Translations under genes and position numbers: made by a program | Notes under the pieces: model-generated | Told to the model about the DNA's origin: nothing | Databases searched by the model: none | The model's input: only the letters and a program-made list of their open reading frames with translations | Shown: positions 1 to 12,819 of the stretch, in pieces | Layout of the letters: every line of letters begins with the position of its first letter | Position numbering within the stretch: the first letter of the stretch is position 1 | DNA from: Escherichia coli | Lineage (GTDB): Bacteria > Pseudomonadota > Gammaproteobacteria > Enterobacterales > Enterobacteriaceae | Direction: 5' to 3' (one strand) | Assembly: GCF_003334335.1 (NCBI RefSeq) | Contig: NZ_QOWQ01000048.1 | DNA: 30,915 nucleotides

Positions 1-264
1 ATGAAGTTCCGGCTCGGTGGTTTCGAGGCCATAAAGTCGGCTTACATGGCCCAGGTGCAGTACAGCATGTGGGTGACACGAAAAGATGCCTGGTACTTTG
101 CCAACTATGACCCGCGTATGAAGCGTGAAGGACTGCATTATGTCGTGGTTGAGCGGGATGAAAAGTACATGGCGAGTTTTGACGAGATGGTGCCGGTGTT
201 CATCGAAAAAATGGACGAGGCACTGGCTGAAATTGGTTTTGTATTTGGGGAGCAATGGCGATGA
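1..264 (+). CDS. exo: Lambda-type exonuclease (Red-alpha), C-terminal fragment, 5'-partial at the window edge
   Basis: The 87-aa translation ending ...[11 protein letters not shown] matches the lambda Exo C-terminus as I recall it; the ATG at position 1 is internal to the real gene. Confidence 0.85.
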
Positions 265-443
265 CGCATCCTCACGATAATATCCGGGTAGGCGCAATCA
301 CTTTCGTCTACTCCGTTACAAAGCGAGGCTGGGTATTTCCCGGCCTTTCTGTTATCCGAAATCCACTGAAAGCACAGCGGCTGGCTGAGGAGATAAATAA
401 TAAACGAGGGGCTGTATGCACAAAGCATCTCCTGTTGAGTTAA
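255..443 (+). CDS. Small lambda orf60a-like protein
   Basis: A 62-aa ORF overlapping the exo 3' end, in the position and orientation of lambda orf60a. The true start may be the second ATG at 261. Confidence 0.65.
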
Positions 444-607
444 GAACGAGTATCGAGATGGCACATAGCCTTGCTCAAATTGGAATCAGGTTTGTGCCAA
501 TACCAGTAGAAACAGACGAAGAATTTCATACGTTAGCCACATCCCTTTCACAAAAACTGGAAATGATGGTGGCGAAAGCAGAAGCAGATGAGAGAGACCA
601 GGTATGA
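416..607 (+). CDS. Small lambda orf63-like protein
   Basis: A 63-aa ORF overlapping the previous ORF by 28 nt, the same arrangement as orf60a/orf63 in lambda. Confidence 0.7.
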   Translation: MHKASPVELRTSIEMAHSLAQIGIRFVPIPVETDEEFHTLATSLSQKLEMMVAKAEADERDQV

Positions 608-687
608 CAACCACTGAATGCATTTTTCTGGCAGCGGGCTTCATATTCTGTGTGCTTATGCTTGCCGACATGGGGCTTGTTCAGTGA
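604..687 (+). CDS. Possible 27-aa hydrophobic micropeptide (MTTTECIFLAAGFIFCVLMLADMGLVQ)
   Basis: Its ATG overlaps the orf63-like TGA stop in an ATGA arrangement (604..607). The sequence is a continuous hydrophobic stretch long enough for one transmembrane helix. Confidence 0.35.
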   Translation: MTTTECIFLAAGFIFCVLMLADMGLVQ

Positions 688-899
688 CACCTCAGCAGGA
701 AAACGCCCTTCGCAGCATTGCCCGTCAGGCTAATTCTGAAATCAAAAAAGCCAGACAGCAGTTTCCGGATAAAAACGTCGATGACATTTGCCGTAGCGTA
801 CTGAAGAAGCACCGCGAAACGGTAACGCTGATGGGATTCACACCGACTCACTTAAGTCTGGCAATCGGTATGTTAAACGGCGTCTTTAAGGAACGGTGA
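618..899 (+). CDS. Hypothetical protein in the orf61 region; start uncertain
   Basis: A 93-aa ORF in a third frame, followed by a hairpin plus T-run. It overlaps the micropeptide ORF, so which of the two is expressed is unresolved. Confidence 0.4.
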   Translation: MHFSGSGLHILCAYACRHGACSVTPQQENALRSIARQANSEIKKARQQFPDKNVDDICRSVLKKHRETVTLMGFTPTHLSLAIGMLNGVFKER

Positions 900-921
900 A
901 CATGAAAAGCAAAATCATCAG

Positions 922-945
922 GGAGCTACAGGCTCCTTTTTTATT
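922..945 (+). terminator. Intrinsic-terminator-like hairpin plus T-tract
   Basis: GGAGC-tacag-GCTCC followed by TTTTTTATT. Confidence 0.45.
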
Positions 946-997
946 ATTCGCATTCACCCTCAAGCGTATTAACCAACAATTCAGGGATTAATGGAAG

Positions 998-1219
998 ATG
1001 GCAGACCTCATTGATTCAGCATCAGAAATTGAAGAATTACAGCGCAACACAGCAATAAAAATGCGCCGCCTGAACCACCAGGCTATATCTGCCACTCATT
1101 GTTGTGAGTGTGGCGATCCGATAGATGAACGAAGACGCCTGGCCGTTCAGGGTTGTCGGACTTGTGCAAGTTGCCAGGAGGATCTGGAACTTATCAGTAA
1201 ACAGAGAGGTTCGAAGTGA
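998..1219 (+). CDS. TraR/DksA-family C4 zinc-finger protein (lambda Orf73-like)
   Basis: A 73-aa protein with CxxC...(17)...CxxC (CCECG...CRTCASC), typical of the TraR/DksA zinc finger. Its stop overlaps the next ORF's GTG (GTGA). Confidence 0.8.
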   Translation: MADLIDSASEIEELQRNTAIKMRRLNHQAISATHCCECGDPIDERRRLAVQGCRTCASCQEDLELISKQRGSK

Positions 1220-1467
1220 GCGTAATTCACTCTCAGGCACTGCGTGAAGCGGCAGAGCAGGCAATGCATGACAACTGGGGATTTGACGCGGACCTTTTCC
1301 ATGAGCTGGTAACACCATCGATTGTGCTGACACTGCTGGATGAACGGGAAAGAAACCAGCAGTACATCAAACGCCGCGACCAGGAGAACGAGGATATTGC
1401 GCTAACGGTGAGGAAACTGCGTGTTGAGCTGGAGACAGCAAAAATCAAAACTCAACGAGCAGCGTGA
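1216..1467 (+). CDS. Ea22-like protein, N-terminal part, ended by an in-frame TGA at 1465
   Basis: GTG start overlapping the upstream stop; the 83-aa product resembles the conserved Ea22 N-terminus (recalled, not searched). The same frame stays open after the TGA for 53 more codons, to a TAG at 1627..1629. Confidence 0.6.
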   Translation: MSVIHSQALREAAEQAMHDNWGFDADLFHELVTPSIVLTLLDERERNQQYIKRRDQENEDIALTVRKLRVELETAKIKTQRAA

Positions 1468-1765
1468 GTAGAAGGTGTTATCTCGGATGGAAGTAAGCGT
1501 ATTGCTGAACTGGAGGCCTGGGTTGAATACACAAGAGCTGCATACGTAAGAGCAAAAGACAAGGGAGATTTGATCAGAGTTATTACCCGACAACCAACGG
1601 GATTTTACGCTTACGTACCATGTAATTAGGAATCCTTGAAGTGGCAGCCTAACTGCGGATACACTGAAATGGCGATTTGGTAACATGTTTCGCACAAGGC
1701 TGTTACTACGCTTAAAGATAATCAGCCATGATTAAACGCTTTGTAAAAAGTAAAAGGAAATTACA

Positions 1766-2380
1766 ATGAAAAAATCAATACTAATTTTAGGGCTTACGTT
1801 AATTGTCTCATCTCAAATACCATCGGCAATGGCAAAAAATGAATCAAGACTTTGGGTTGTTGTTGATCGAACGGAAAGACATACCTGCCCTTCAAGTAAA
1901 TGTGGAGTGGCTGGGAAACTATTTTTCAGGGAAGGCGTAGATTTTCTAGAAAAAAAAGGTGAATGGGTTCGTATAACTGAGCCATATTCAGCCTCATGTG
2001 TGGGAGGGGAAAGCGAATATATTAAAGAAGGTAATAAATCCTGCACAAGAAAAAACGGAATCGTCAATGGCAAGTTTTCAGAATGGGTTAAACTTAGTGA
2101 TCTTAGCAGTGAAAGGCCATCAGATCCTGCTGAAAATGCGAGCGGAGATGATACTTTAATCAAAGGATCTGATGACTACCGTATATACAAAAAAGAGTTT
2201 TCTTCGGCAGCTAGGAAGTTAATAAACGAAGGGGTCTGCACGGAAAGCGACTTTAAGGAAATCGGAGGGTGGATGGCATCAAGCAATAAGGGGAAAAACA
2301 TCTATTTCACATATTGCGGAGGAATGACGTTGTCGAACAGAATATACCTAGACGTTAAAAGTGGAAAGACTTTTAGATAA
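1766..2380 (+). CDS. Hypothetical secreted (periplasmic) protein, 204 aa, AT-rich accessory gene
   Basis: SD AAGGAAA 8 nt upstream of the ATG. N-terminal signal peptide MKKSILILGLTLIVSSQIPSAMA with an AMA-K signal peptidase I site and no lipobox. The mature part has 7 Cys. Codon usage is visibly AT-rich compared with the flanking genes. Confidence 0.75.
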   Translation: MKKSILILGLTLIVSSQIPSAMAKNESRLWVVVDRTERHTCPSSKCGVAGKLFFREGVDFLEKKGEWVRITEPYSASCVGGESEYIKEGNKSCTRKNGIVNGKFSEWVKLSDLSSERPSDPAENASGDDTLIKGSDDYRIYKKEFSSAARKLINEGVCTESDFKEIGGWMASSNKGKNIYFTYCGGMTLSNRIYLDVKSGKTFR

Positions 2381-2451
2381 TATGATATTACCAATGACAG
2401 TATTAATTTAATGCCTCCATAGAATTATCTCTAGGAAGTATGTATAAGAAA

Positions 2452-2488
2452 AGCCCGCACAATGAGCTGCTGCGGGCTTTGTGTTATT
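2452..2488 (+). terminator. Intrinsic terminator downstream of the secreted-protein gene
   Basis: AGCCCGCA-(11-nt loop)-TGCGGGCT followed by TTGTGTTATT. Confidence 0.55.
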
Positions 2489-2673
2489 CGCCATATTTTA
2501 TGAAGCAAATACGACACTATAGATAATTAAGCGTTGCTGGTTGTCGATTCCTCACTCACTCCTGTTGATGGCTCTCTTCTTGTATGTGCCATTGAAGGGT
2601 AATATCGAGTAAAAAGATACCGGAAGTATCCGCGCCGCCATGATTGTCTTTCTCCTAATGCAGGAAAAGCAGA

Positions 2674-3012
2674 ATGGCTAAATCATCAGCAGAGCGCAAA
2701 GTCGATCAGAGAGCCAAGCAAGCATCATCCGGTATGCGTAAGCTGGAGCTTGTACTTGATGCTCAGGAAATTGAAATGCTGGATCGTAACTGAGCCACGC
2801 GCCGCTTCAGGCATGCGCCTTACGAGTTTGGTGAGTACATCGCGTTACTGAGCCGCCAGGATGATGCACGTGTGCGCTGGCGTATAAAATCGATCAGCAG
2901 AAAACGTTGCGGTAAGTGCGGCGAGAGAGTTCCTGTTAATTCATGCCCGTGTAATGGTGACTCACAATGCTGGGTGACCAAAGGCTGGCACGAAACAAAA
3001 TTAATGATATAA
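2674..3012 (+). pseudogene. Cys-rich small-protein ORF interrupted by a single in-frame TGA (2791..2793); possibly an ea8.5-type gene
   Basis: Frame 1 is open from 2644 to 3009 apart from the one TGA. The C-terminal half carries CGKC...CPC...C, a zinc-ribbon-like pattern. SD AGGAAA precedes the ATG at 2674. The ORF track shows no intact ORF of 60 aa or more on either strand here. Confidence 0.45.
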
Positions 3013-3040
3013 ATCTCTGTGACATGTCACGGAGGCGGCA

Positions 3041-3469
3041 ATGAAATTAGACCAGCAATATCTAAAAGATCTACTTATCGCATTCGAAAAAACTCATGGC
3101 CCTGACACGATGCTTAGTGAACTAGAGGATAATGGCTTTAATAGATATGACCAAAATTTTATTTTCCATATGCGATTATTATGCGACTACGAATTAATAG
3201 TCAGGGTTGATGGAAAACCTGGGTTCGGTCATATAATGTCCAACGAGTTAGGGGAAGGTGTTGGATATAGTTGGATCGAAGTACCACTGAGGTTGACAGC
3301 AAGAGGGCATGATTTTATTGCTGACTTGCGTCAAAAGGAGGTCTGGCAAACTATAAAAACAAACTTTAAGGATGAGGGAATTAGTACACTAATAAGTGTT
3401 TCAAAATCACTAGCAAAAGGCTTTGCAAGGAAAAAGATAAAAGATATTACAGGAATAGATATTGAATAA
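3041..3469 (+). CDS. Hypothetical cytoplasmic protein, 142 aa, AT-rich accessory gene
   Basis: Strong SD GGAGG 5 nt upstream. No signal peptide or transmembrane segment. Followed by its own terminator. No catalytic motif that I recognise. Confidence 0.7.
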   Translation: MKLDQQYLKDLLIAFEKTHGPDTMLSELEDNGFNRYDQNFIFHMRLLCDYELIVRVDGKPGFGHIMSNELGEGVGYSWIEVPLRLTARGHDFIADLRQKEVWQTIKTNFKDEGISTLISVSKSLAKGFARKKIKDITGIDIE

Positions 3470-3513
3470 TTCTTAGCATCAGCAACTACTGCCTTTGGTG
3501 GAAATTATATCTG

Positions 3514-3540
3514 AACTCGCTACGGCGAGTTTTGTTTTAT
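3514..3540 (+). terminator. Intrinsic terminator downstream of the 142-aa gene
   Basis: AACTCGC-tacg-GCGAGTT followed by TTGTTTTAT. Confidence 0.6.
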
Positions 3541-3551
3541 GGAGATGATAA

Positions 3552-3719
3552 ATGCACTTCCGAGTCACAGGTGAATGGAATGGAGAACCATTCAACAGAG
3601 TTATCGAAGCAGAGAACATCAATGACTGCTATGACCACTGGATGATATGGGCGCAGATAGCACATGCAGACATAACCAATATTCGAATTGAAGAACTGAA
3701 AGAACACCAAGCCGCCTGA
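3552..3719 (+). CDS. Hypothetical 55-aa protein upstream of xis
   Basis: GGAG 8 nt upstream of the ATG; the ORF ends inside a hairpin plus T-run. Confidence 0.4.
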   Translation: MHFRVTGEWNGEPFNRVIEAENINDCYDHWMIWAQIAHADITNIRIEELKEHQAA

Positions 3720-3732
3720 TGGCGGTTTTTTC
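3709..3732 (+). terminator. Terminator-like hairpin just upstream of xis
   Basis: CCGCC-tgat-GGCGG followed by TTTTTTC. In lambda-type logic this would be read through by antiterminated pL transcripts. Confidence 0.45.
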
Positions 3733-3758
3733 TTGCGTGTAATTGCGGAGACTTTGCG

Positions 3759-3977
3759 ATGTACTTGACACTTCAGGAGTGGAACGCTCGCCAGCGACGC
3801 CCAAGAAGCCTTGAAACAGTTCGTCGATGGGTGCGCGAATGCAGGATATTCCCTCCTCCGGTTAAGGATGGAAGAGAATATCTGTTCCACGAATCAGCGG
3901 TAAAGGTTGACTTAAATCGACCAGTAACAGGTAGCCTTTTGAAGAGGATCAGAAATGGGAAGAAGGCGAAGTCATGA
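3759..3977 (+). CDS. xis: Excisionase
   Basis: The 72-aa product MYLTLQEWNARQRRPRSLETVRRWVRECRIF... matches lambda Xis as I recall it; it overlaps the int start by 23 nt, as in lambda. Confidence 0.95.
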   Translation: MYLTLQEWNARQRRPRSLETVRRWVRECRIFPPPVKDGREYLFHESAVKVDLNRPVTGSLLKRIRNGKKAKS

Positions 3978-5025
3978 GCGCCGGGATTTACCCCCTAACC
4001 TTTATATAAGAAACAATGGATATTACTGCTACAGGGACCCAAGGACGGGTAAAGAGTTTGGATTAGGCCGAGACAGGCGAATCGCAATCACTGAAGCTAT
4101 ACAGGCCAACATTGAGTTATTTTCAGGACACAAACACAAGCCTCTGACAGCGAGAATCAACAGTGATAATTCCGTTACGTTACATTCATGGCTTGATCGC
4201 TACGAAAAAATCCTGGCCAGCAGAGGAATCAAGCAGAAGACACTCATAAATTACATGAGCAAAATTAAAGCAATAAGGAGGGGTCTGCCTGATGCTCCAC
4301 TTGAAGACATCACCACAAAAGAAATTGCGGCAATGCTCAATGGATACATAGACGAGGGAAAGGCGGCATCAGCCAAGTTAATCAGATCAACACTGAGCGA
4401 TGCATTCCGAGAGGCTATGGCTGAAGGCCATATAACAACAAACCCGGTCGCAGCCACTCGCGCTGCAAAATCAGAGGTAAGGAGATCAAGACTTACGGCT
4501 GACGAATACCTGAAAATTTATCAAGCAGCAGAATCATCACCATGTTGGCTTAGACTTGCAATGGAACTGGCTGTTGTTACCGGGCAGCGAGTTGGTGATT
4601 TATGCGAAATGAAGTGGTCTGATATCGTAGATGGATATCTTTATGTCGAGCAAAGCAAAACAGGCGTAAAAATTGCCATCCCAACAACATTGCATGTTGA
4701 TGCTCTCGGGATATCAATGAAGGAAACACTTGATAAATGCAAAAAGATTCTTGGCGGAGAAACCATAATTGCATCTACTCGTCGTGAACCGCTTTCATCC
4801 GGCACAGTATCAAGGTATTTTATGCGCGCACGAAAAGCATCAGGTCTCTCCTTCGAAGGGGATCCGCCAACCTTTCACGAGTTGCGCAGTTTGTCTGCAA
4901 GACTCTATGAGAAGCAGATAAGCGATAAATTTGCTCAACATCTTCTCGGGCATAAGTCGGACACCATGGCATCACAGTATCGTGATGACAGAGGCAGGGA
5001 GTGGGACAAAATTGAAATCAAATAA
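3955..5025 (+). CDS. int: Tyrosine integrase, lambda Int type
   Basis: The 356-aa product MGRRRSHERRDLPPNLYIRNNGYYCYRDPRTGKEF... is essentially lambda Int by recollection; its 3' end faces the att site. Confidence 0.97.
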   Translation: MGRRRSHERRDLPPNLYIRNNGYYCYRDPRTGKEFGLGRDRRIAITEAIQANIELFSGHKHKPLTARINSDNSVTLHSWLDRYEKILASRGIKQKTLINYMSKIKAIRRGLPDAPLEDITTKEIAAMLNGYIDEGKAASAKLIRSTLSDAFREAMAEGHITTNPVAATRAAKSEVRRSRLTADEYLKIYQAAESSPCWLRLAMELAVVTGQRVGDLCEMKWSDIVDGYLYVEQSKTGVKIAIPTTLHVDALGISMKETLDKCKKILGGETIIASTRREPLSSGTVSRYFMRARKASGLSFEGDPPTFHELRSLSARLYEKQISDKFAQHLLGHKSDTMASQYRDDRGREWDKIEIK

Positions 5026-5113
5026 TGATTTTATTTTGACTGATAGTGACCTGTTCGTTGCAACAAATTGATAAGCAATGCTTTTTTATAATGCCAACTT
5101 AGTATAAAAAAGC
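5026..5113. other. attL (B-O-P') junction: P' arm with Int arm-type sites and the 15-bp common core
   Basis: The core TTAGTATAAAAAAGC at 5099..5113 is the reverse complement of the lambda att core GCTTTTTTATACTAA. Arm-type sites ATTTTGACTG and ATAGTGACCT lie at about 5034..5053. Host B-side sequence AGGCTTCA follows the core. Confidence 0.85.
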
Positions 5114-6448: not shown

Positions 6449-6660
<212 letters not shown>

Positions 6661-6676
6661 ATTCACATGGCGCTTT

Positions 6677-8938
6677 TTACATCTGACGGTTTTTATTGAA
6701 GTTAATCAAACTACCCGCCTTGATAATCTCGCGCTCTTCAGCAGTCAGACTTTCCATATAGAGCGTAATTTCCGTTACCGGCGCATCTTCATGGATCACA
6801 TAACCTTTAAACGTCGTACCCGGATTATCCAGCGCCGCTTTAATGCCAGGGATGTAAATGTAATCCCCCACTTCAAAGGTTGGTACTTCCGCCATTTGCA
6901 GCGGTAACATCCCCCAGTTGATGACGTTAGAACGATAGCGTTTAGTCGCGTACTCCTCGGCAATATTCGCCAGACCGCCAATCACACGCTGGCAGCTCGC
7001 CGCCTGTTCACGCGCAGAACCATCGCCTGGTTTCACCGCATAGACCATGCTGCCAATTTCAGTTTGCAGCGGATCAATATGCTCCTGACCAGCAATCTGC
7101 TTAATGCGCGCAAACACCTCTGTCAGCTCGCTGACATTCCCCGCCAGACGCTGATTTTCCAGCTCAGCAGTCGCTTTACTTCTGCTAACATAACCGGGAT
7201 CGCGGCGAGACAGGGTAAACTCCGCCAGACCAATCGGATTTGAACGATAAGAAGAGGTTTCACCGGAAGGAATCAGTTCGTCGGTGGTGGTCACTTCGTC
7301 GAGGATCTTCGAGCACACTTTCAGGACGATATTGTCAGTCAGCGCACCCAATTCCGGCCAGTCTTTAATGTTCGGCCCGTAAATCAGCGGTTGCTGAGTT
7401 GCCCCTTTCACAAAGCCCTGATAAACACGGTTTTTATACGGCGTTACATCGAAGGCGTACTCCGGCACGTTGTCCCAGCAATCAAGTTCGCTGGCAGAGG
7501 TTAAATAGCCACCGTTTGCCGCAGTCGCAGCGATAGAACGAGCGTCCATCAACGCCACCGCTGACATCTGCCCATTAGCTGGCTTAGAGCCTTCGCGGTT
7601 CGGGAAGTTACGCGTGGTGTGGCGAATACTCAAACCGTTGTTGATTGGCGTATCGCCCGCGCCAAAGCATGGGCCGCAGAACGCGGTTCTGATGATTGCG
7701 CCTGCGCCAATCAAATCTGCTACCACACCTTTTTTGGCGAGATCCATAAACACCGGCTGTGATGACGGGTAAACTGCCAGCGAGAAGGTGTCATTGCCAC
7801 AGGATTGACCGCGCAGTGCATTCGCCGCCGCGATGACGTTTTCGTAGTTACCGCCAGAACAGCCCGCGATAATCCCCTGCTGCACTTTCAGGCGACCATT
7901 TTCCACTTTATCCAGCAGCGAGAGTTTGGCTTTACCGTGCGCCACGCGTTCGGACTCAATTTCAATCTCACGCAGAATGTCGGTCAGGTTCTGGTTCAGT
8001 GTGTCGATTTCATACACGTTGCTCGGGTGGAACGGCAGCGCAATCATTGGTTTGATGGCGCTTAAATCAACGCTGATGCAGCCATCGTAGTACGCCATCG
8101 GTTGAGGGTTAAGCTGGCAGTAATCCTGGCCGCGACCGTGCAGCGCCAGCCAGTTATGGACTTCTTCATCGGTTTGCCAGACAGAACTTAAACAGGTCGT
8201 TTCAGTGGTCATCACGTCAACGCTGTTACGGAAATCGGTAGAGAGCGCGCTAACGCCCGGTCCAACGAACTCCATGACTTTGTTTTTGACGTAACCGTTT
8301 TTGAACACCGCGCCAATGATAGCCAGCGCCACATCCTGTGGCCCCACATACGGCGCAGGTTTTCCGGTCAGATGCACCGCAACCACGCCCGGATAGTCGA
8401 TATCCCAGGTGTCATTAAGCAGCTGTTTTACCAACTCACCGCCGCCCTCACCGACTGCCATTGTCCCTAATGCACCGTAACGGGTGTGGCTGTCTGACCC
8501 GAGGATCATTTTGCCGCCGCCTGCCATCATCTCACGCATATATTGATGGATGACCGCAATATGCGGAGGCACAAAAATACCGCCATAACGCTGGGCCGCC
8601 GATAAACCAAAAACATGGTCATCACCGTTAATAGTGCCGCCGACGGCGCAGAGTGAGTTATGGCAGTTGGTCAGCACATACGGCAGCGGGAAACGTTCCA
8701 TACCGGACGCTTTAGCGGTCTGTACAATACCAACAAAGGTAATATCGTGAGAGGCTAATGAATCAAACTTAATTTTAAGTTTATCCATATTTCCGGACGT
8801 ATTATGCGAAGAGAGAATAGACCAGGCAATAGTGCCTTTTTTGGCTTCTTCTTTTTTAATTTCGCCGGTGAAATGTTCTTCGGCAATTATTTCGTTATTA
8901 CTGGCGAGAAACACGCCTTTTTCAGATAACTTGATCAT
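6677..8938 (-). CDS. ybhJ: Aconitase-family putative hydratase
   Basis: Matches E. coli YbhJ. Start set at the internal ATG (MIKLSEK...), which has GGAG 8 nt upstream, rather than the ORF-track start at 8962. Confidence 0.9.
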
Positions 8939-8993
8939 CAAATGCTCCAGATATCTGCGCACCGTGAAGTGCGCAGAAAGATAATAAATGGAT

Positions 8994-9115
8994 ATACTCT
9001 AAATAATTCGAGTTGCAGGAAGGCGACAAGCGAGTGAATCCCCAGGAGCTTACATAAGTAAGTGACTGGGGTGAGCGAACGCAGACGCAGCACATGCAAC
9101 TTGAAGTATGACGAG
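8994..9115. repeat. ERIC (IRU) enterobacterial repetitive intergenic consensus element
   Basis: Contains GTGAATCCCCAGGAGCTTACATAAGTAAGTGACTGGGGTGAGCG, the ERIC core from which the ERIC1R/ERIC2 primers derive. Confidence 0.8.
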
Positions 9116-9120
9116 AATAT

Positions 9121-10554
9121 TTACAGCATGTTCCAGCCGATCAGCATATTCCACCACCACACGCCGAGGGTGATATGCACCAGGAAGGTTAATATCGTCA
9201 GTACCGCACCGACCAACCACCAGGATTTAATATCGTTATAACCCACGCCAAAGATGACCGGACCTGCCGCGCCGCCATAGTGAGTAACCATGCCGCCATA
9301 GGAGTTGGAGAACAACAGTGCCAGCGCGGTTAACATTAACGGTGCGCCGGAGACGTTCGCCAGCATGGCAAATACCGGTAACATAGCAACGATATAGGCA
9401 CTACCGGAAGCGAAGAAATAACGCACGATAATGCTGAGGAAAATAATAACGAAGAAAGCAACGTTACCGTGACCATCAAATGCCAGGTTATTTTTAAAGA
9501 CTTCAGCTAACCATTCGAAGAATTTAACTTTCGATAATAAGGAGCTTAAGCCGATAATACCGCCGTACCAGATTAAGGTATTCCAGCCGCCTTTATTTTT
9601 AACCACGTCTTCCCAGGTAACGATACCCAGCAGCAGCATGGTTGCCATAACAACGATTGCCACGGTGGATTCATCAACCCCCAGAGACTTACTGAAAATC
9701 CAGCCCAGCAGCGCCAGCACAAAGACACCGAGCAGCATTTTTTCGCGGATTTTCATCGGTCCTAGTTCGGCAAGGCCCGCTTTAGCGATGGTTTTGTTAT
9801 CCACCTTCTTAATTTCTGGTGGATACATGGTGTAAATCACCAGCGGGGTGACCAGCAGCATAATGATGCCCGGCAATCCGGCTGCCAGCGCCCATCCACC
9901 CCAGCTAATTTGCAGGTGCAGAATGTCGTTGATCATTTTCAGCGCCAGAATGTTCCCCGCCATTGCGGTAAAGAACATATAGCTGGTGGTTTTGGTGACC
10001 ATGTAAATGGACATCATCAGGTAATGTCCGACACGACGCGGACTTTTTTCCGGTTCGGACCCCAAAGCCACCGCCACGCTGTTGATGATCGGTAACACAA
10101 TGCCGCCCGCACGCGCGGTGTTAGACGGTGTTGCCGGAGCCAGTACCAGATCGAGGAATACCGTAACGTAACCCAGACCCAGCGTGGTGTTACCGATTTT
10201 ACCAATCAGCAGATAGGCAATACGTTTACCTAAACCGGTGGTCACAAATGCGGCGCTTAAGGTAAACGCCGAGAACACCAGCCAGGTGGTACCTGAAGAG
10301 TAACCGCTTAATACGGCGGTGGTTTTAAACGCACCGTCGGATAAGTTACCGACCACCACCATTGAGGCAGCAACGGCAATTAACAGTACGACAGGTTCCG
10401 GGAAAGGCTTGATAACCAGCCCCACAATGGCCGCCAGGTAAATACCAAAAAGCACCCACGCCAGTTCGCTTAATCCTGCCGGAGCTGGCATAAAACCAAT
10501 AATACATGGGATCGCTAATATCAGAATTAGCTTCCATAACGATTTCTTATTCAT
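9121..10554 (-). CDS. ybhI: DASS-family divalent anion:sodium symporter
   Basis: A 477-aa polytopic membrane protein matching E. coli YbhI. Confidence 0.9.
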   Translation of the reverse strand: MNKKSLWKLILILAIPCIIGFMPAPAGLSELAWVLFGIYLAAIVGLVIKPFPEPVVLLIAVAASMVVVGNLSDGAFKTTAVLSGYSSGTTWLVFSAFTLSAAFVTTGLGKRIAYLLIGKIGNTTLGLGYVTVFLDLVLAPATPSNTARAGGIVLPIINSVAVALGSEPEKSPRRVGHYLMMSIYMVTKTTSYMFFTAMAGNILALKMINDILHLQISWGGWALAAGLPGIIMLLVTPLVIYTMYPPEIKKVDNKTIAKAGLAELGPMKIREKMLLGVFVLALLGWIFSKSLGVDESTVAIVVMATMLLLGIVTWEDVVKNKGGWNTLIWYGGIIGLSSLLSKVKFFEWLAEVFKNNLAFDGHGNVAFFVIIFLSIIVRYFFASGSAYIVAMLPVFAMLANVSGAPLMLTALALLFSNSYGGMVTHYGGAAGPVIFGVGYNDIKSWWLVGAVLTILTFLVHITLGVWWWNMLIGWNML

Positions 10555-10629
10555 TTAAAATCCTGTTCTTTCTGTATGACTCATACAGAAGTCCTTTATT
10601 GATTGTCCTTATCCTGACAACGAATTTTT

Positions 10630-11682
10630 TCAGGGAAGATAAACTTCACCGGAAAATATTTTTCTGGTCGTCCGAATAACAGATGCGCGTAACGTCGTGG
10701 CATCCTGACCTTCATTACTTAAATGAACGTCGAGCGCACCACTGGGGTGTTCAATATTGATATTGCCGTATCCTACAGAAGGGACGATTTGTCGGGTGAC
10801 GGTGCCTTCCAATGCACAACTACTGGAAATAGCAATAGCACCGGTTATCGCCAGCGCGCGATGGCAAGAATGCGGCATAAAATAACGCACATTAATTGCC
10901 CCGCCTTTCTGCGCTGGAGAAATAAGCACAGGTTTAGGGATAACCATATTACTGACATCACCTAAGCCCATTGCTTTACCCGCTTGTAGACGGATAGATT
11001 CAATGCGGGCTAATAATGCTTTGTCGGCATCCAGTTCCGCCGGTAATTCATAACCTGTTTTTCCCAGATATTCAGCCGGAATAATGACGACTGGCATCGC
11101 CATATCGATACAGGTCACCGGGACATCGTCAAAATAATCAATCTGATTATCAGTCGGGAAAACTTTTCCGGTTTTGGTTCCAGCGGCATTCAGGAAAGTG
11201 AGCGCAACCGGTGCGGCAGTACCCGGTACGCCGTCAATTCTGGCGCTACCCTCGTACTCGACAACACCATTTGGCGTTTGCACATCAGCTTCGATGAACG
11301 TACCCGTATTGACGTTGCGGATACGTACGCGAGTAACTGGCGAAGTCGCTGCAATCAAACCATTTTCAATGGCGAATGCCCCAACACCAGACAGCATATT
11401 GCCGCAGTTAGGCGTGGTATCGACACGTTGCTCATGAACGATTACCTGCGCAAACAGATAATCGACATCAGCACGCGGATCGCTGGAACGGCTAATAATG
11501 GCGACTTTACTGGTCAGTGGATTACCGCCGCCAATACCGTCAATTTCCAGATCGTTACCGGAACCCATAATTGCCATCAATATTTTATCGCGCTGCGTTT
11601 GATCTTCGGGTAAATGTTCCGCTAACAGGAACGCGCCCCTCGAGGTTCCACCTCGCATCATCACGCAGGGTATTTTTTTCAT
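10630..11682 (-). CDS. ybhH: PrpF/AcnD-accessory-family putative isomerase
   Basis: A 350-aa product matching E. coli YbhH. Confidence 0.9.
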   Translation of the reverse strand: MKKIPCVMMRGGTSRGAFLLAEHLPEDQTQRDKILMAIMGSGNDLEIDGIGGGNPLTSKVAIISRSSDPRADVDYLFAQVIVHEQRVDTTPNCGNMLSGVGAFAIENGLIAATSPVTRVRIRNVNTGTFIEADVQTPNGVVEYEGSARIDGVPGTAAPVALTFLNAAGTKTGKVFPTDNQIDYFDDVPVTCIDMAMPVVIIPAEYLGKTGYELPAELDADKALLARIESIRLQAGKAMGLGDVSNMVIPKPVLISPAQKGGAINVRYFMPHSCHRALAITGAIAISSSCALEGTVTRQIVPSVGYGNINIEHPSGALDVHLSNEGQDATTLRASVIRTTRKIFSGEVYLP

Positions 11683-11865
11683 AATAATGCCCTCAATTTA
11701 AAAACATAACTTATTGCGATATGGTTACATTAAGGGCAAAGCATCTCTAATGACTTTAGCTCAACGATTAATAACATTTTTTCATTAATTTAAGTTGGCT
11801 AAATGCAGTTAAAATTTTTAACGGCCAGCCACCCAAAATCGTCGCTTCCATTTTCCGGAGTAATA

Positions 11866-12819
11866 ATGAAGCATGAATTATCAAGTATGAAGGCATTTGT
11901 CATACTGGCAGAGTCCAGTTCGTTTAACAATGCCGCTAAATTACTCAATATTACGCAACCTGCATTAACGCGAAGAATAAAAAAGATGGAGGAAGATTTA
12001 CATATTCAACTATTTGAGCGTACAACTCGCAAGGTTACGTTAACAAAAGCAGGAAAAAGGTTGCTCCCGGAGGCGCGGGAATTAATAAAGAAATTCGATG
12101 AAACGCTTTTTAATATTCGTGATATGAATGCTTATCATCGTGGTATGGTGACGTTAGCGTGTATTCCGACCGCAGTATTTTATTTTTTACCGCTGGCAAT
12201 CGGTAAATTTAATGAGCTGTATCCCAATATTAAAGTGCGGATTCTGGAACAAGGCACGAATAATTGCATGGAATCGGTGCTGTGTAACGAATCAGACTTT
12301 GGCATAAACATGAACAACGTCACAAATTCATCCATTGATTTTACCCCACTGGTCAACGAGCCGTTCGTGCTGGCCTGTCGGCGTGACCATCCATTGGCCA
12401 AAAAGCAGCTTGTAGAATGGCAGGAGTTAGTGGGTTACAAAATGATTGGCGTACGCTCCTCCAGCGGCAACCGACTGTTGATAGAACAACAGCTGGCCGA
12501 CAAGCCCTGGAAGCTGGACTGGTTTTACGAAGTGCGTCATCTTTCGACGTCATTAGGACTGGTGGAGGCGGGACTGGGGATTTCGGCGCTTCCTGGCCTG
12601 GCAATGCCTCATGCGCCCTATTCTTCGATTATTGGTATCCCATTGGTGGAACCCGTTATACGTCGAACATTGGGAATAATTCGCCGTAAAGATGCCGTAC
12701 TTTCTCCAGCAGCAGAACGCTTTTTTGCCTTGCTGATTAATTTATGGACTGACGATAAAGACAATTTGTGGACCAATATCGTCGAACGCCAGAGACACGC
12801 GTTACAGGAGATAGGTTAA
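11866..12819 (+). CDS. ybhD: LysR-type transcriptional regulator
   Basis: Start at the internal ATG (MKHELSS...) with a GGAG SD. N-terminal helix-turn-helix. Divergent from ybhH. Confidence 0.85.
   Translation: MKHELSSMKAFVILAESSSFNNAAKLLNITQPALTRRIKKMEEDLHIQLFERTTRKVTLTKAGKRLLPEARELIKKFDETLFNIRDMNAYHRGMVTLACIPTAVFYFLPLAIGKFNELYPNIKVRILEQGTNNCMESVLCNESDFGINMNNVTNSSIDFTPLVNEPFVLACRRDHPLAKKQLVEWQELVGYKMIGVRSSSGNRLLIEQQLADKPWKLDWFYEVRHLSTSLGLVEAGLGISALPGLAMPHAPYSSIIGIPLVEPVIRRTLGIIRRKDAVLSPAAERFFALLINLWTDDKDNLWTNIVERQRHALQEIG

Follow-up and report, generated by a model that had tools for sequence, protein, structure and literature searches.

The gene cluster ybhD-ybhHIJ, which occupies positions 6677-12819 of a 30,915-nt stretch of Escherichia coli DNA (contig NZ_QOWQ01000048.1 of RefSeq assembly GCF_003334335.1; this whole stretch is hereafter the window), encodes a LysR-type regulator, a PrpF-family isomerase, a DASS-family carboxylate transporter, and an aconitase-superfamily enzyme, and can be set beside several described systems. 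Foremost among these is TarR-TarA-TarB from Bacillus velezensis FZB42 (PMC11495376), which likewise brings a regulator and a membrane transporter together with a PrpF-superfamily isomerase, and in which the isomerase product, cis-aconitate, is a tricarboxylic acid (TCA) cycle intermediate. Here, the E. coli cluster differs in that its carrier is of the DASS rather than the MFS type, its LysR-type regulator is a repressor while TarR is an activator, and a putative dedicated aconitase (YbhJ) comes as an extra component; moreover, its activities are proposed from sequence and gene context. The (4E)-oxalomesaconate delta-isomerases LigU and GalD of the protocatechuate 4,5-cleavage and gallate pathways (PDB ID: 6P3H, 6P3J, and 6P3K) resemble YbhH in fold, in a Lys/Cys pair, and, as proposed here, in a 1,3-allylic proton shift on a tricarboxylate, though the neighbourhoods of YbhH hold no dioxygenase or 4-oxalomesaconate (OMA) hydratase, and the proposed substrate, aconitate, is one carbonyl shorter than oxalomesaconate. 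In E. coli itself, citCDEFXG-citT and ttdR/ttdAB-ttdT each pair a carboxylate-converting enzyme with a DASS exchanger paralogous to YbhI. The ttd system moreover has a divergent LysR regulator and an Fe-S hydro-lyase, and the likeness to cit extends to Providencia and Serratia, where a YbhI homologue takes the position after citG. Compared with both, ybhHIJ would have two additional enzymes upstream of the lyase step, an isomerase and an aconitase, with antiport by YbhI presumed by analogy. In the 2-methylcitrate cycle of Shewanella oneidensis, the AcnD-PrpF pair also combines an aconitase-family enzyme with a PrpF-family isomerase that moves the double bond for the hydro-lyase (PMC5690661), but YbhH and YbhJ score far below the prpF and AcnD cut-offs and prpBC is not linked to the ybh module. 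Finally, the canonical aconitases (mitochondrial/AcnA and AcnB) share with YbhJ the cluster cysteines, the catalytic Ser, the His/Asp/Glu triads, and the Arg residues, as well as the operon role that YbhJ orthologues have with citrate synthase and isocitrate dehydrogenase (IDH), though YbhJ belongs to a separate family (NF008503, named 'hydratase'), carries six substitutions, and lies below all the curated cut-offs.

The region under study runs exactly from the stop codon of ybhJ to that of ybhD, and contains the following features.

6677-8938, minus strand: ybhJ, a 753-aa aconitase-superfamily [4Fe-4S] hydro-lyase (from the open reading frame (ORF) list, in which the longest ORF extends to a GTG at 8962)

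8994-9120, minus strand: enterobacterial repetitive intergenic consensus (ERIC) element, which fills the ybhI-ybhJ spacer

9121-10554, minus strand: ybhI, a 477-aa DASS-family carboxylate transporter and CitT/TtdT paralogue (ORF list and TIGR00785)

10630-11682, minus strand: ybhH, a 350-aa PrpF/LigU-family 1,3-allylic isomerase (ORF list; identical to PDB ID: 6OTV)

11683-11865, no strand: divergent control region of ybhD and ybhH, which holds a candidate YbhD operator dyad at 11767-11789

11866-12819, plus strand: ybhD, a 317-aa LysR-type regulator (ORF list, in which the longest ORF starts at 11803)

A preliminary description of this DNA had placed ybhJ, ybhI, and ybhH in one direction and ybhD divergent from them, and both the ORF positions and the RefSeq annotation of identical DNA, which has the same four genes, agree; the family assignments that it gave to YbhJ, YbhI, YbhH, and YbhD also hold in domain-model searches. 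Since at least 80% of the region is found in 5316 of 5426 complete E. coli genomes, and the unit of LysR regulator divergent from PrpF, DASS, and aconitase genes recurs at other chromosomal sites in Klebsiella aerogenes and Edwardsiella tarda, the arrangement is not a matter of chance. The GC content is mixed across the module (~0.54 in ybhJ and 0.42-0.47 in ybhD and ybhH) and gives no clear signal of horizontal transfer. The cluster as such is already known and has long been annotated. That its substrate is unassigned in E. coli, as had been stated earlier, is borne out by a full-text literature search with the four gene names across ~8 million papers, which returned no validated substrate and only one relevant paper, a regulatory study (PMC9068703), and by the PDB entry for E. 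coli YbhH (6OTV), where the protein is named just 'putative isomerase'. What is new here is a specific substrate hypothesis drawn from several independent gene contexts, along with the view that YbhJ and its family are anaerobe-type aconitases and that YbhH-like proteins are likely misnamed.

On balance, we regard ybhD-ybhHIJ as probably an aconitate utilisation module, with YbhI as the importer, YbhH as the isomerase, YbhJ as the aconitase, and YbhD as the repressor. As we picture it, YbhI, a CitT/TtdT-like DASS carrier, would take up aconitate, probably in an exchange for succinate under anaerobic conditions, as its paralogues suggest, and YbhH would then carry out the 1,3-allylic shift from trans- to cis-aconitate (EC 5.3.3.7) via the conserved Lys59 and Cys93. 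YbhJ, as a [4Fe-4S] aconitase whose family otherwise seems to provide the TCA-branch aconitase of gut anaerobes, would hydrate cis-aconitate to citrate or isocitrate, hydration being the more likely direction for this aconitase-type step than dehydration, and the citrate could be cleaved by citrate lyase, whose genes (citCDEFXG) are located elsewhere in E. coli, or pass into the TCA cycle. YbhD, for its part, is predicted to bind an ATTAAT-N11-ATTAAT dyad and to keep the operon off until an effector, presumably aconitate, is present. By this route, external trans-aconitate, and probably cis-aconitate as well, would be fed into citrate metabolism. The gene logic suggested in the preliminary description, that is, uptake, isomerisation, and an aconitase-type hydro-lyase step for an acid of the tricarboxylate type, controlled by a divergent LysR regulator, stands in both the domain searches and the conserved contexts. 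With regard to the candidate acids put forward there, the gene contexts now clearly favour aconitate, and methylaconitate, itaconate, and tartrate-type acids have become less favoured.

Much of the argument comes from gene contexts in other bacteria, which narrow down the substrate to aconitate and citrate. YbhH and its divergent LysR partner are found as a unit in Pseudomonas (54% identity for YbhD and 63% for YbhH) and in Dickeya (60% and 62%, respectively). In Pseudomonas, the regulator and isomerase genes are accompanied by carriers of the SDF and CitMHS types and by an OprD-family porin, but by no other enzyme. What characterises systems of the TarA/TbrA type, namely, a PrpF-family isomerase together with a carboxylate transporter and a dedicated regulator, and with no other pathway enzyme required, is thus seen in Pseudomonas, with variants in E. 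coli, Klebsiella, and Dickeya. Because such a set of regulator, carriers, and a single allylic isomerase requires that the product already be a central metabolite, it points, for this enzyme family, to the conversion of trans- to cis-aconitate. In Dickeya, an MFS carrier, a FAH-family protein, and citCDEF come after the YbhD-YbhH pair, and in Providencia rustigianii, citCDEFXG is followed by a YbhI homologue (64-65% identity) and then by a YbhH homologue (61% identity). In Serratia fonticola, citEFXG, a hydrolase, and an AcnB-type aconitase precede a YbhI homologue of 65% identity. Here, the presence of a different aconitase in the same slot, beside citrate lyase and a YbhI-like carrier, lends independent support to the view that an aconitase is required to turn the imported compound into citrate.

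In the Klebsiella aerogenes module, YbhI and YbhJ are encoded on either side of a second DASS-type carrier (locus L002, 8683-9945; 420 aa; Pfam CitMHS and NCBIfam TIGR00785), which sits where E. coli has the ERIC element and has no detectable similarity at E < 1e-5 to the CitMHS carrier of the Pseudomonas cluster. In Edwardsiella tarda (locus L004, 8483-9912), ybhI is broken into two frames, one for residues 1-217 and one for 239-477, and looks like a transporter pseudogene within an otherwise conserved module, in which ybhD, ybhH, and ybhJ are intact. The YbhI homologue of Snodgrassella has no informative neighbours.

For YbhJ, an alignment was used to scan one genome per bacterial species, which gave at least 600 relatives, and contexts were taken from the best 80 of these; neighbouring ORFs were clustered and the recurrent families named with NCBIfam. 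Within this set of 80, the orthologues that come after those of E. albertii and Citrobacter are 65-72% identical to YbhJ over the full length, and they belong to gut anaerobes (Lachnospiraceae, Enterocloster, Blautia, Hungatella, ~37 Collinsella, Megasphaera, Acidaminococcus, and Ellagibacter). YbhH, YbhI, or YbhD stands beside the orthologue at two loci only, both enterobacterial. In 21 Firmicutes loci, on the other hand, the orthologue (65-73% identity) lies 3-35 bp from a gene for citrate synthase (at 12 of the loci), for an isocitrate-dehydrogenase-like enzyme (at 13), or for citrate lyase CitDEF (at 5), usually in the order YbhJ, citrate synthase, and IDH, or CitDEF and YbhJ. The identities of these neighbours are well supported, with citrate synthase at 588 bits against a cut-off of 426 (NF010635) and CitF at 645 against 501. 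From this operon context, we infer YbhJ to be an aconitase, from a family that chiefly serves anaerobes.

Consistent with a role of this kind, the catalytic residues of aconitase are largely in place in YbhJ, which scores 1541 bits with NF008503 ('hydratase'), the sole model for which it exceeds the cut-off, and 63 bits with the AcnD model (cut-off 1420). Cys360, Cys421, and Cys424 align with the cluster ligands of pig aconitase (Cys358, Cys421, and Cys424) and are invariant in 18 orthologues, while Ser641 aligns with the catalytic Ser642, and His93, His131, Asp149, His151, Glu246, Arg443, Arg448, and Arg643 match the aconitase set of His101, His147, Asp165, His167, Glu262, Arg447, Arg452, and Arg644. 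A literature search for AcnC and ybhJ returned noise only. Blank et al. are said to have reported in 2002 that ybhJ inactivation was without effect on residual aconitase activity.

Several other observations concern YbhJ and its relatives. At the Collinsella loci (L044-L093; ~37 genomes), the orthologue is found in a conserved setting near recurrent genes that, on inspection of their sequences, resemble dnaK, dnaJ, an hspR-like regulator, and clpB, and not near TCA genes. Two more distant relatives (P0148 and P0156, at loci L010 and L011; 38-39% identity to YbhJ) were dropped, having lost the cluster cysteines and several catalytic residues and standing in uninformative contexts; they are probably non-catalytic, and each is followed by a Macro-domain gene. 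Also set aside, as a different pathway, was a metagenomic cluster (L009) that holds three aconitase-like genes beside an Iso_dh and a PrpF gene, since its PrpF is only 37% identical to YbhH and is not an orthologue; this PrpF gives 324 bits with the OMA model (NF033377) and 305 with the prpF model. Together with a second Clostridia-like contig, this cluster (L009, 199-10202, and L040, 9334-14660) combines a YbhJ orthologue, a PRK07229-type aconitase, a LysR gene, and an Iso_dh gene of 383-393 aa with a mixed-type PrpF (~35-37% identity to YbhH) and a YbhJ paralogue (40-48% identity), and it appears to represent an uncharacterised tricarboxylate pathway with three aconitase-family enzymes.

YbhH falls well short of the prpF model (187 bits against a cut-off of 440.55), and matches 3-methylitaconate isomerase (PDB ID: 3G7K; E value of 1.7e-67) and PrpF as well as LigU. 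Its nearest relatives beyond the Enterobacteriaceae, from Pseudomonas, Dickeya, and Providencia, are 61-64% identical and much closer to it than LigU is. Lys59 and Cys93 of YbhH align with the LigU residues that are mutated in the 6P3H (Lys to Met) and 6P3K (Cys to Ser) structures, which we take to be the catalytic Lys66 and Cys100. The LigU reaction is a 1,3-allylic shift on the oxalo-homologue of trans-aconitate, and so is an analogue of the trans- to cis-aconitate conversion. The NCBI name '4-oxalomesaconate tautomerase' is probably an over-annotation in the case of YbhH. As a related observation, the NF033377 equivalog gives this name not only to YbhH but to thousands of homologues in Pseudomonas, Dickeya, and Providencia without gallate or protocatechuate pathway genes nearby, and seems broader than its name.

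A link to measured aconitate isomerases can be drawn from the TarR-TarA-TarB study, which assayed 16 TarA homologues from trans-aconitate-assimilating isolates and found four Pseudomonas enzymes (AI-7-1, AI-16-1, AI-41-1, and AI-32-1) to be fully active, with 88-102% of the forward activity of TarA (PMC11495376). The primers for these four encode proteins that start with QRIPCV(L) and end with RRLAG or QRLAG, while the weak enzymes in the same primer table begin with AHVPQV, as PrpF does (PMC11495376 supplements). The Pseudomonas YbhH-like clade, for comparison, begins with MQRIPCVL and ends with SQRLAG. It is suggestive that the active enzymes would belong to this clade, though the match covers 6-7 residues per terminus and not full sequences, which tells against leaning on it heavily. 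The TarA homologues in Table S6 of that study (37-40.5% identity) also include enterobacterial YbhH orthologues, from Escherichia fergusonii and Shigella boydii (39.6-40.5%), Citrobacter, and Klebsiella (PMC11495376).

YbhI scores 554 bits with the DASS model TIGR00785 (cut-off 198.6) and is 33% identical to CitT and 34% to TtdT over ~480 residues, that is, at full length. The preliminary description had called it a DASS di/tricarboxylate symporter. Of this, the DASS family membership stands, but a symport mechanism is not established, the nearest characterised relatives, CitT (citrate:succinate) and TtdT (tartrate:succinate), being exchangers; both are characterised E. coli DASS carriers. The 182-bp spacer between ybhI and ybhJ, as read from its sequence, is filled by the ERIC repeat, in which both classical primer sites occur with zero mismatches (9034-9055, minus strand, and 9056-9077, plus strand; 0 expected by chance), the primer sequences presumably being those of Versalovic (1991). 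Since the gap is accounted for by a repeat of this kind, it offers no argument against co-transcription of the two genes. For ybhJ, the ATG at 8938 is favoured as the start by the alignment of orthologues and by a GGAG placed 7 nt upstream. Between the ERIC element and this ribosome-binding site, there is also a GC-rich hairpin, CTGCGCAC-N-GTGCGCAG, at ~8954-8975 (minus strand), inside which the alternative GTG start at 8962 falls, and which may have an effect on ybhJ translation or mRNA stability.

YbhD matches LysR models, with both HTH_1 and LysR substrate-binding domains, but none above an equivalog cut-off, and its identity to TtdR (26%) is confined to the N-terminal third. According to published data, there is a ChIP-exo site for YbhD, and ybhH is strongly upregulated when ybhD is deleted, as seen by RNA-seq, from which YbhD is a repressor of ybhH(I) (PMC9068703). 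In the divergent spacer, a block of ~75 bp is conserved between E. coli and Edwardsiella. The candidate operator is an inverted repeat of the T-N11-A type, ATTAAT-N11-ATTAAT (11767-11789), followed by a second conserved block, and the dyad is kept in E. albertii, in Citrobacter and Edwardsiella (one mismatch each), and perfectly in Dickeya. A scan of the region for consensus promoters and terminators yielded nothing above the shuffled expectation.

A number of points weigh against an aconitate module and have to be taken together. YbhJ is below the cut-off of every curated aconitase model (343 against 612 bits for PRK07229 and 289 against 719 for TIGR01342), and differs from mitochondrial aconitase at six second-shell or binding positions (Q72H, D100C, N170Y, N258V, N446T, and S643A). 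YbhH, for its part, is above the cut-off of the 4-oxalomesaconate tautomerase model (NF033377; 515 against 440 bits), and its nearest solved enzyme of known function is LigU, to which it aligns end to end with about half of the residues identical by eye. Moreover, Providencia rettgeri AI-79 gave only 0.67% and 0.35% of TarA activity (PMC11495376); the C-terminus encoded by its primer, GDVYVP, resembles GEVYLP in YbhH and GNVFVP in P. rustigianii, but its construct started at RGGTSK and was ~9 N-terminal residues short. In engineered E. coli W3110, trans-aconitate accumulates extracellularly to more than 10 g/L and re-consumption is not reported (PMC12492653), which would mean that the native module is silent or ineffective in aerobic glucose culture. 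The aconitate model also explains neither the L-malate phenotype of the ybhD deletion nor the regulation by Nac noted in the same work (PMC9068703). Lastly, the closeness of the Klebsiella module to a cit island was down-weighted, as it may reflect only an insertion hotspot (the rihC-dapB interval).

Set against the uptake of aconitate is the same chemistry run in reverse, where YbhJ would supply cis-aconitate from citrate, YbhH would convert it to the trans form, and YbhI would export the product, possibly by exchange, much as TbrA/TbrB of Bacillus thuringiensis serve trans-aconitate production. We hold this to be unlikely, though it has some attraction in that aconitate isomerases are reversible, with the transporter thought to set the direction (PMC11495376), and that isolates of Enterobacter, Citrobacter, and Providencia are reported to produce trans-aconitate (PMC13188880); moreover, a dedicated aconitase would suit biosynthetic supply, and carriers of the CitT type are exchangers. 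The orthologous cluster of Pseudomonas, however, includes an outer-membrane porin of the OprD type and the uptake-type SDF and CitMHS carriers, and citrate lyase, to which the homologues of Dickeya, Providencia, and Serratia are linked, is a catabolic enzyme. Repression by a LysR regulator, with de-repression upon its deletion, is also typical of inducible catabolism, and excretion of trans-aconitate by wild-type E. coli is not reported. Highly improbable, in our estimate, is a system mainly for L-malate or other C4-dicarboxylates, as might be taken from the altered growth of the ybhD deletion on glycerol plus L-malate, for which its authors used the label 'L-malate utilisation related', and from the ~35% identity of YbhI to plastid 2-oxoglutarate/malate translocators (PMC9068703). 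Malate has no need of an allylic isomerase or an aconitase, none of the contexts links the module to a malate enzyme, and the phenotype is explicable by de-repressed YbhI exchanging dicarboxylates as a side activity, in the way that its paralogues exchange succinate.

Two further explanations replace the substrate. Nicotinate fermentation makes use of a PrpF-family and aconitase-family enzyme pair, Mii and DmdAB, which gives a precedent for YbhH as a methylitaconate-type isomerase and YbhJ as a specialised hydratase that act on another unsaturated or hydroxy acid (itaconate, citraconate, or mesaconate toward citramalate, or else 2-methylaconitate, homoaconitate, or dimethylmaleate). The matches of YbhH to 3G7K and PrpF, the name '2,3-dimethylmalate dehydratase large subunit' that some databases give to YbhJ orthologues, the six departures of YbhJ from canonical aconitase, and the AcnD/PrpF pair known for methylcitrate (PMC5690661) all speak for it. 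Even so, we consider it distinctly unlikely. The same six deviations occur in orthologues within the citrate synthase-IDH and citrate lyase operons, 20 out of 20 aconitase active-site positions being the same in E. coli YbhJ and the operon-linked orthologues, so that they can be read as family traits that are compatible with citrate, aconitate, and isocitrate. Moreover, no CoA-transferase, citramalate-type lyase, or methylcitrate gene stands beside the module in the contexts examined, and the Pseudomonas cluster, which has an isomerase and transporters only, needs a product that is already a central metabolite. Alternatively, YbhH might be a true OMA delta-isomerase, and the module might salvage ring-cleavage products of gallate or protocatechuate from other gut microbes, with YbhJ in place of LigJ/GalB. 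This draws on the NF033377 score and on the end-to-end alignment with LigU and its Lys/Cys pair; in addition, as the LigU product is an oxalo-analogue of cis-aconitate, its hydration by an aconitase-type enzyme would be chemically conceivable. We nonetheless find it very unlikely, as there is no ring-cleavage dioxygenase (gallate or protocatechuate) or OMA hydratase near the module in E. coli, Klebsiella, Edwardsiella, Pseudomonas, Dickeya, or Providencia, and the sole CHA-aldolase-family (RraA-like) gene across these six contexts is truncated and sits at the edge of the Dickeya locus, at a distance of ~7 kb. YbhJ orthologues are furthermore tied to citrate enzymes, the YbhH clade is 61-63% identical internally and clearly more distant from LigU, and NF033377 also gives the mixed-type PrpF of L009 324 bits, which suggests a broad model.

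Were ybhD-ybhHIJ indeed an aconitate utilisation module, two enzymes, a transporter, and a regulator of the best-studied bacterium would gain a function, and so would a reaction that EcoCyc treats as spontaneous in E. coli, the interconversion of trans- and cis-aconitate, for which EC 5.3.3.7 is without an enzyme there (PMC3781023). More tentatively, the module could stand for an unrecognised anaerobic branch of the citrate-lyase pathway in Enterobacterales, an 'aconitate fermentation' with YbhI as an aconitate:succinate exchanger, YbhH as the first enzymatic EC 5.3.3.7 step in E. coli, and YbhJ as a third functional E. coli aconitase. In this tentative extension, the YbhJ family would be the principal aconitase of many gut Firmicutes and Collinsella, would be shared with the Enterobacteriaceae, and might tolerate the inhibitor trans-aconitate. 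Trans-aconitate, an aconitase inhibitor, occurs in abundance in grasses, cereals, and sugar cane. For gut Enterobacteriaceae, the ability to import it and make citrate from it could plausibly serve in nutrition or in detoxification. The operon evidence also suggests that many abundant gut anaerobes have their TCA-branch aconitase from the YbhJ family, a point that bears on metabolic reconstructions of the microbiome, and the name '4-oxalomesaconate tautomerase' is probably wrong for those of the thousands of YbhH-like proteins that lack gallate-pathway neighbours.

Some minor observations concern variation at the locus and its surroundings. In several E. coli strains that are otherwise 100% identical, IS1, IS5, IS903B, or ISVsa5 lies inside ybhH, ybhI, or the ybhD-ybhH spacer, which suggests that the module is dispensable in those strains; the top ranking of these IS-carrying matches is probably a scoring artefact of duplicated target sites and not biology. 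Positions 1-5100 of the window belong to a lambdoid prophage inserted beside ybhC at the lambda attachment site and form its integrase-proximal end (int at 3955-5025, plus strand). At full length, this prophage end has 97.9% identity with Escherichia phage Chlobot, while phage lambda covers only ~61% of it. In the spacer between ybhC and ybhJ, positions 6512-6582 (minus strand) match the Rfam family naRNA4, a REP325-type nucleoid-associated RNA, at 60.7 bits against a gathering threshold of 59.5, and a spurious ORF at 6500-6907 encodes repeated REP-like peptide strings.

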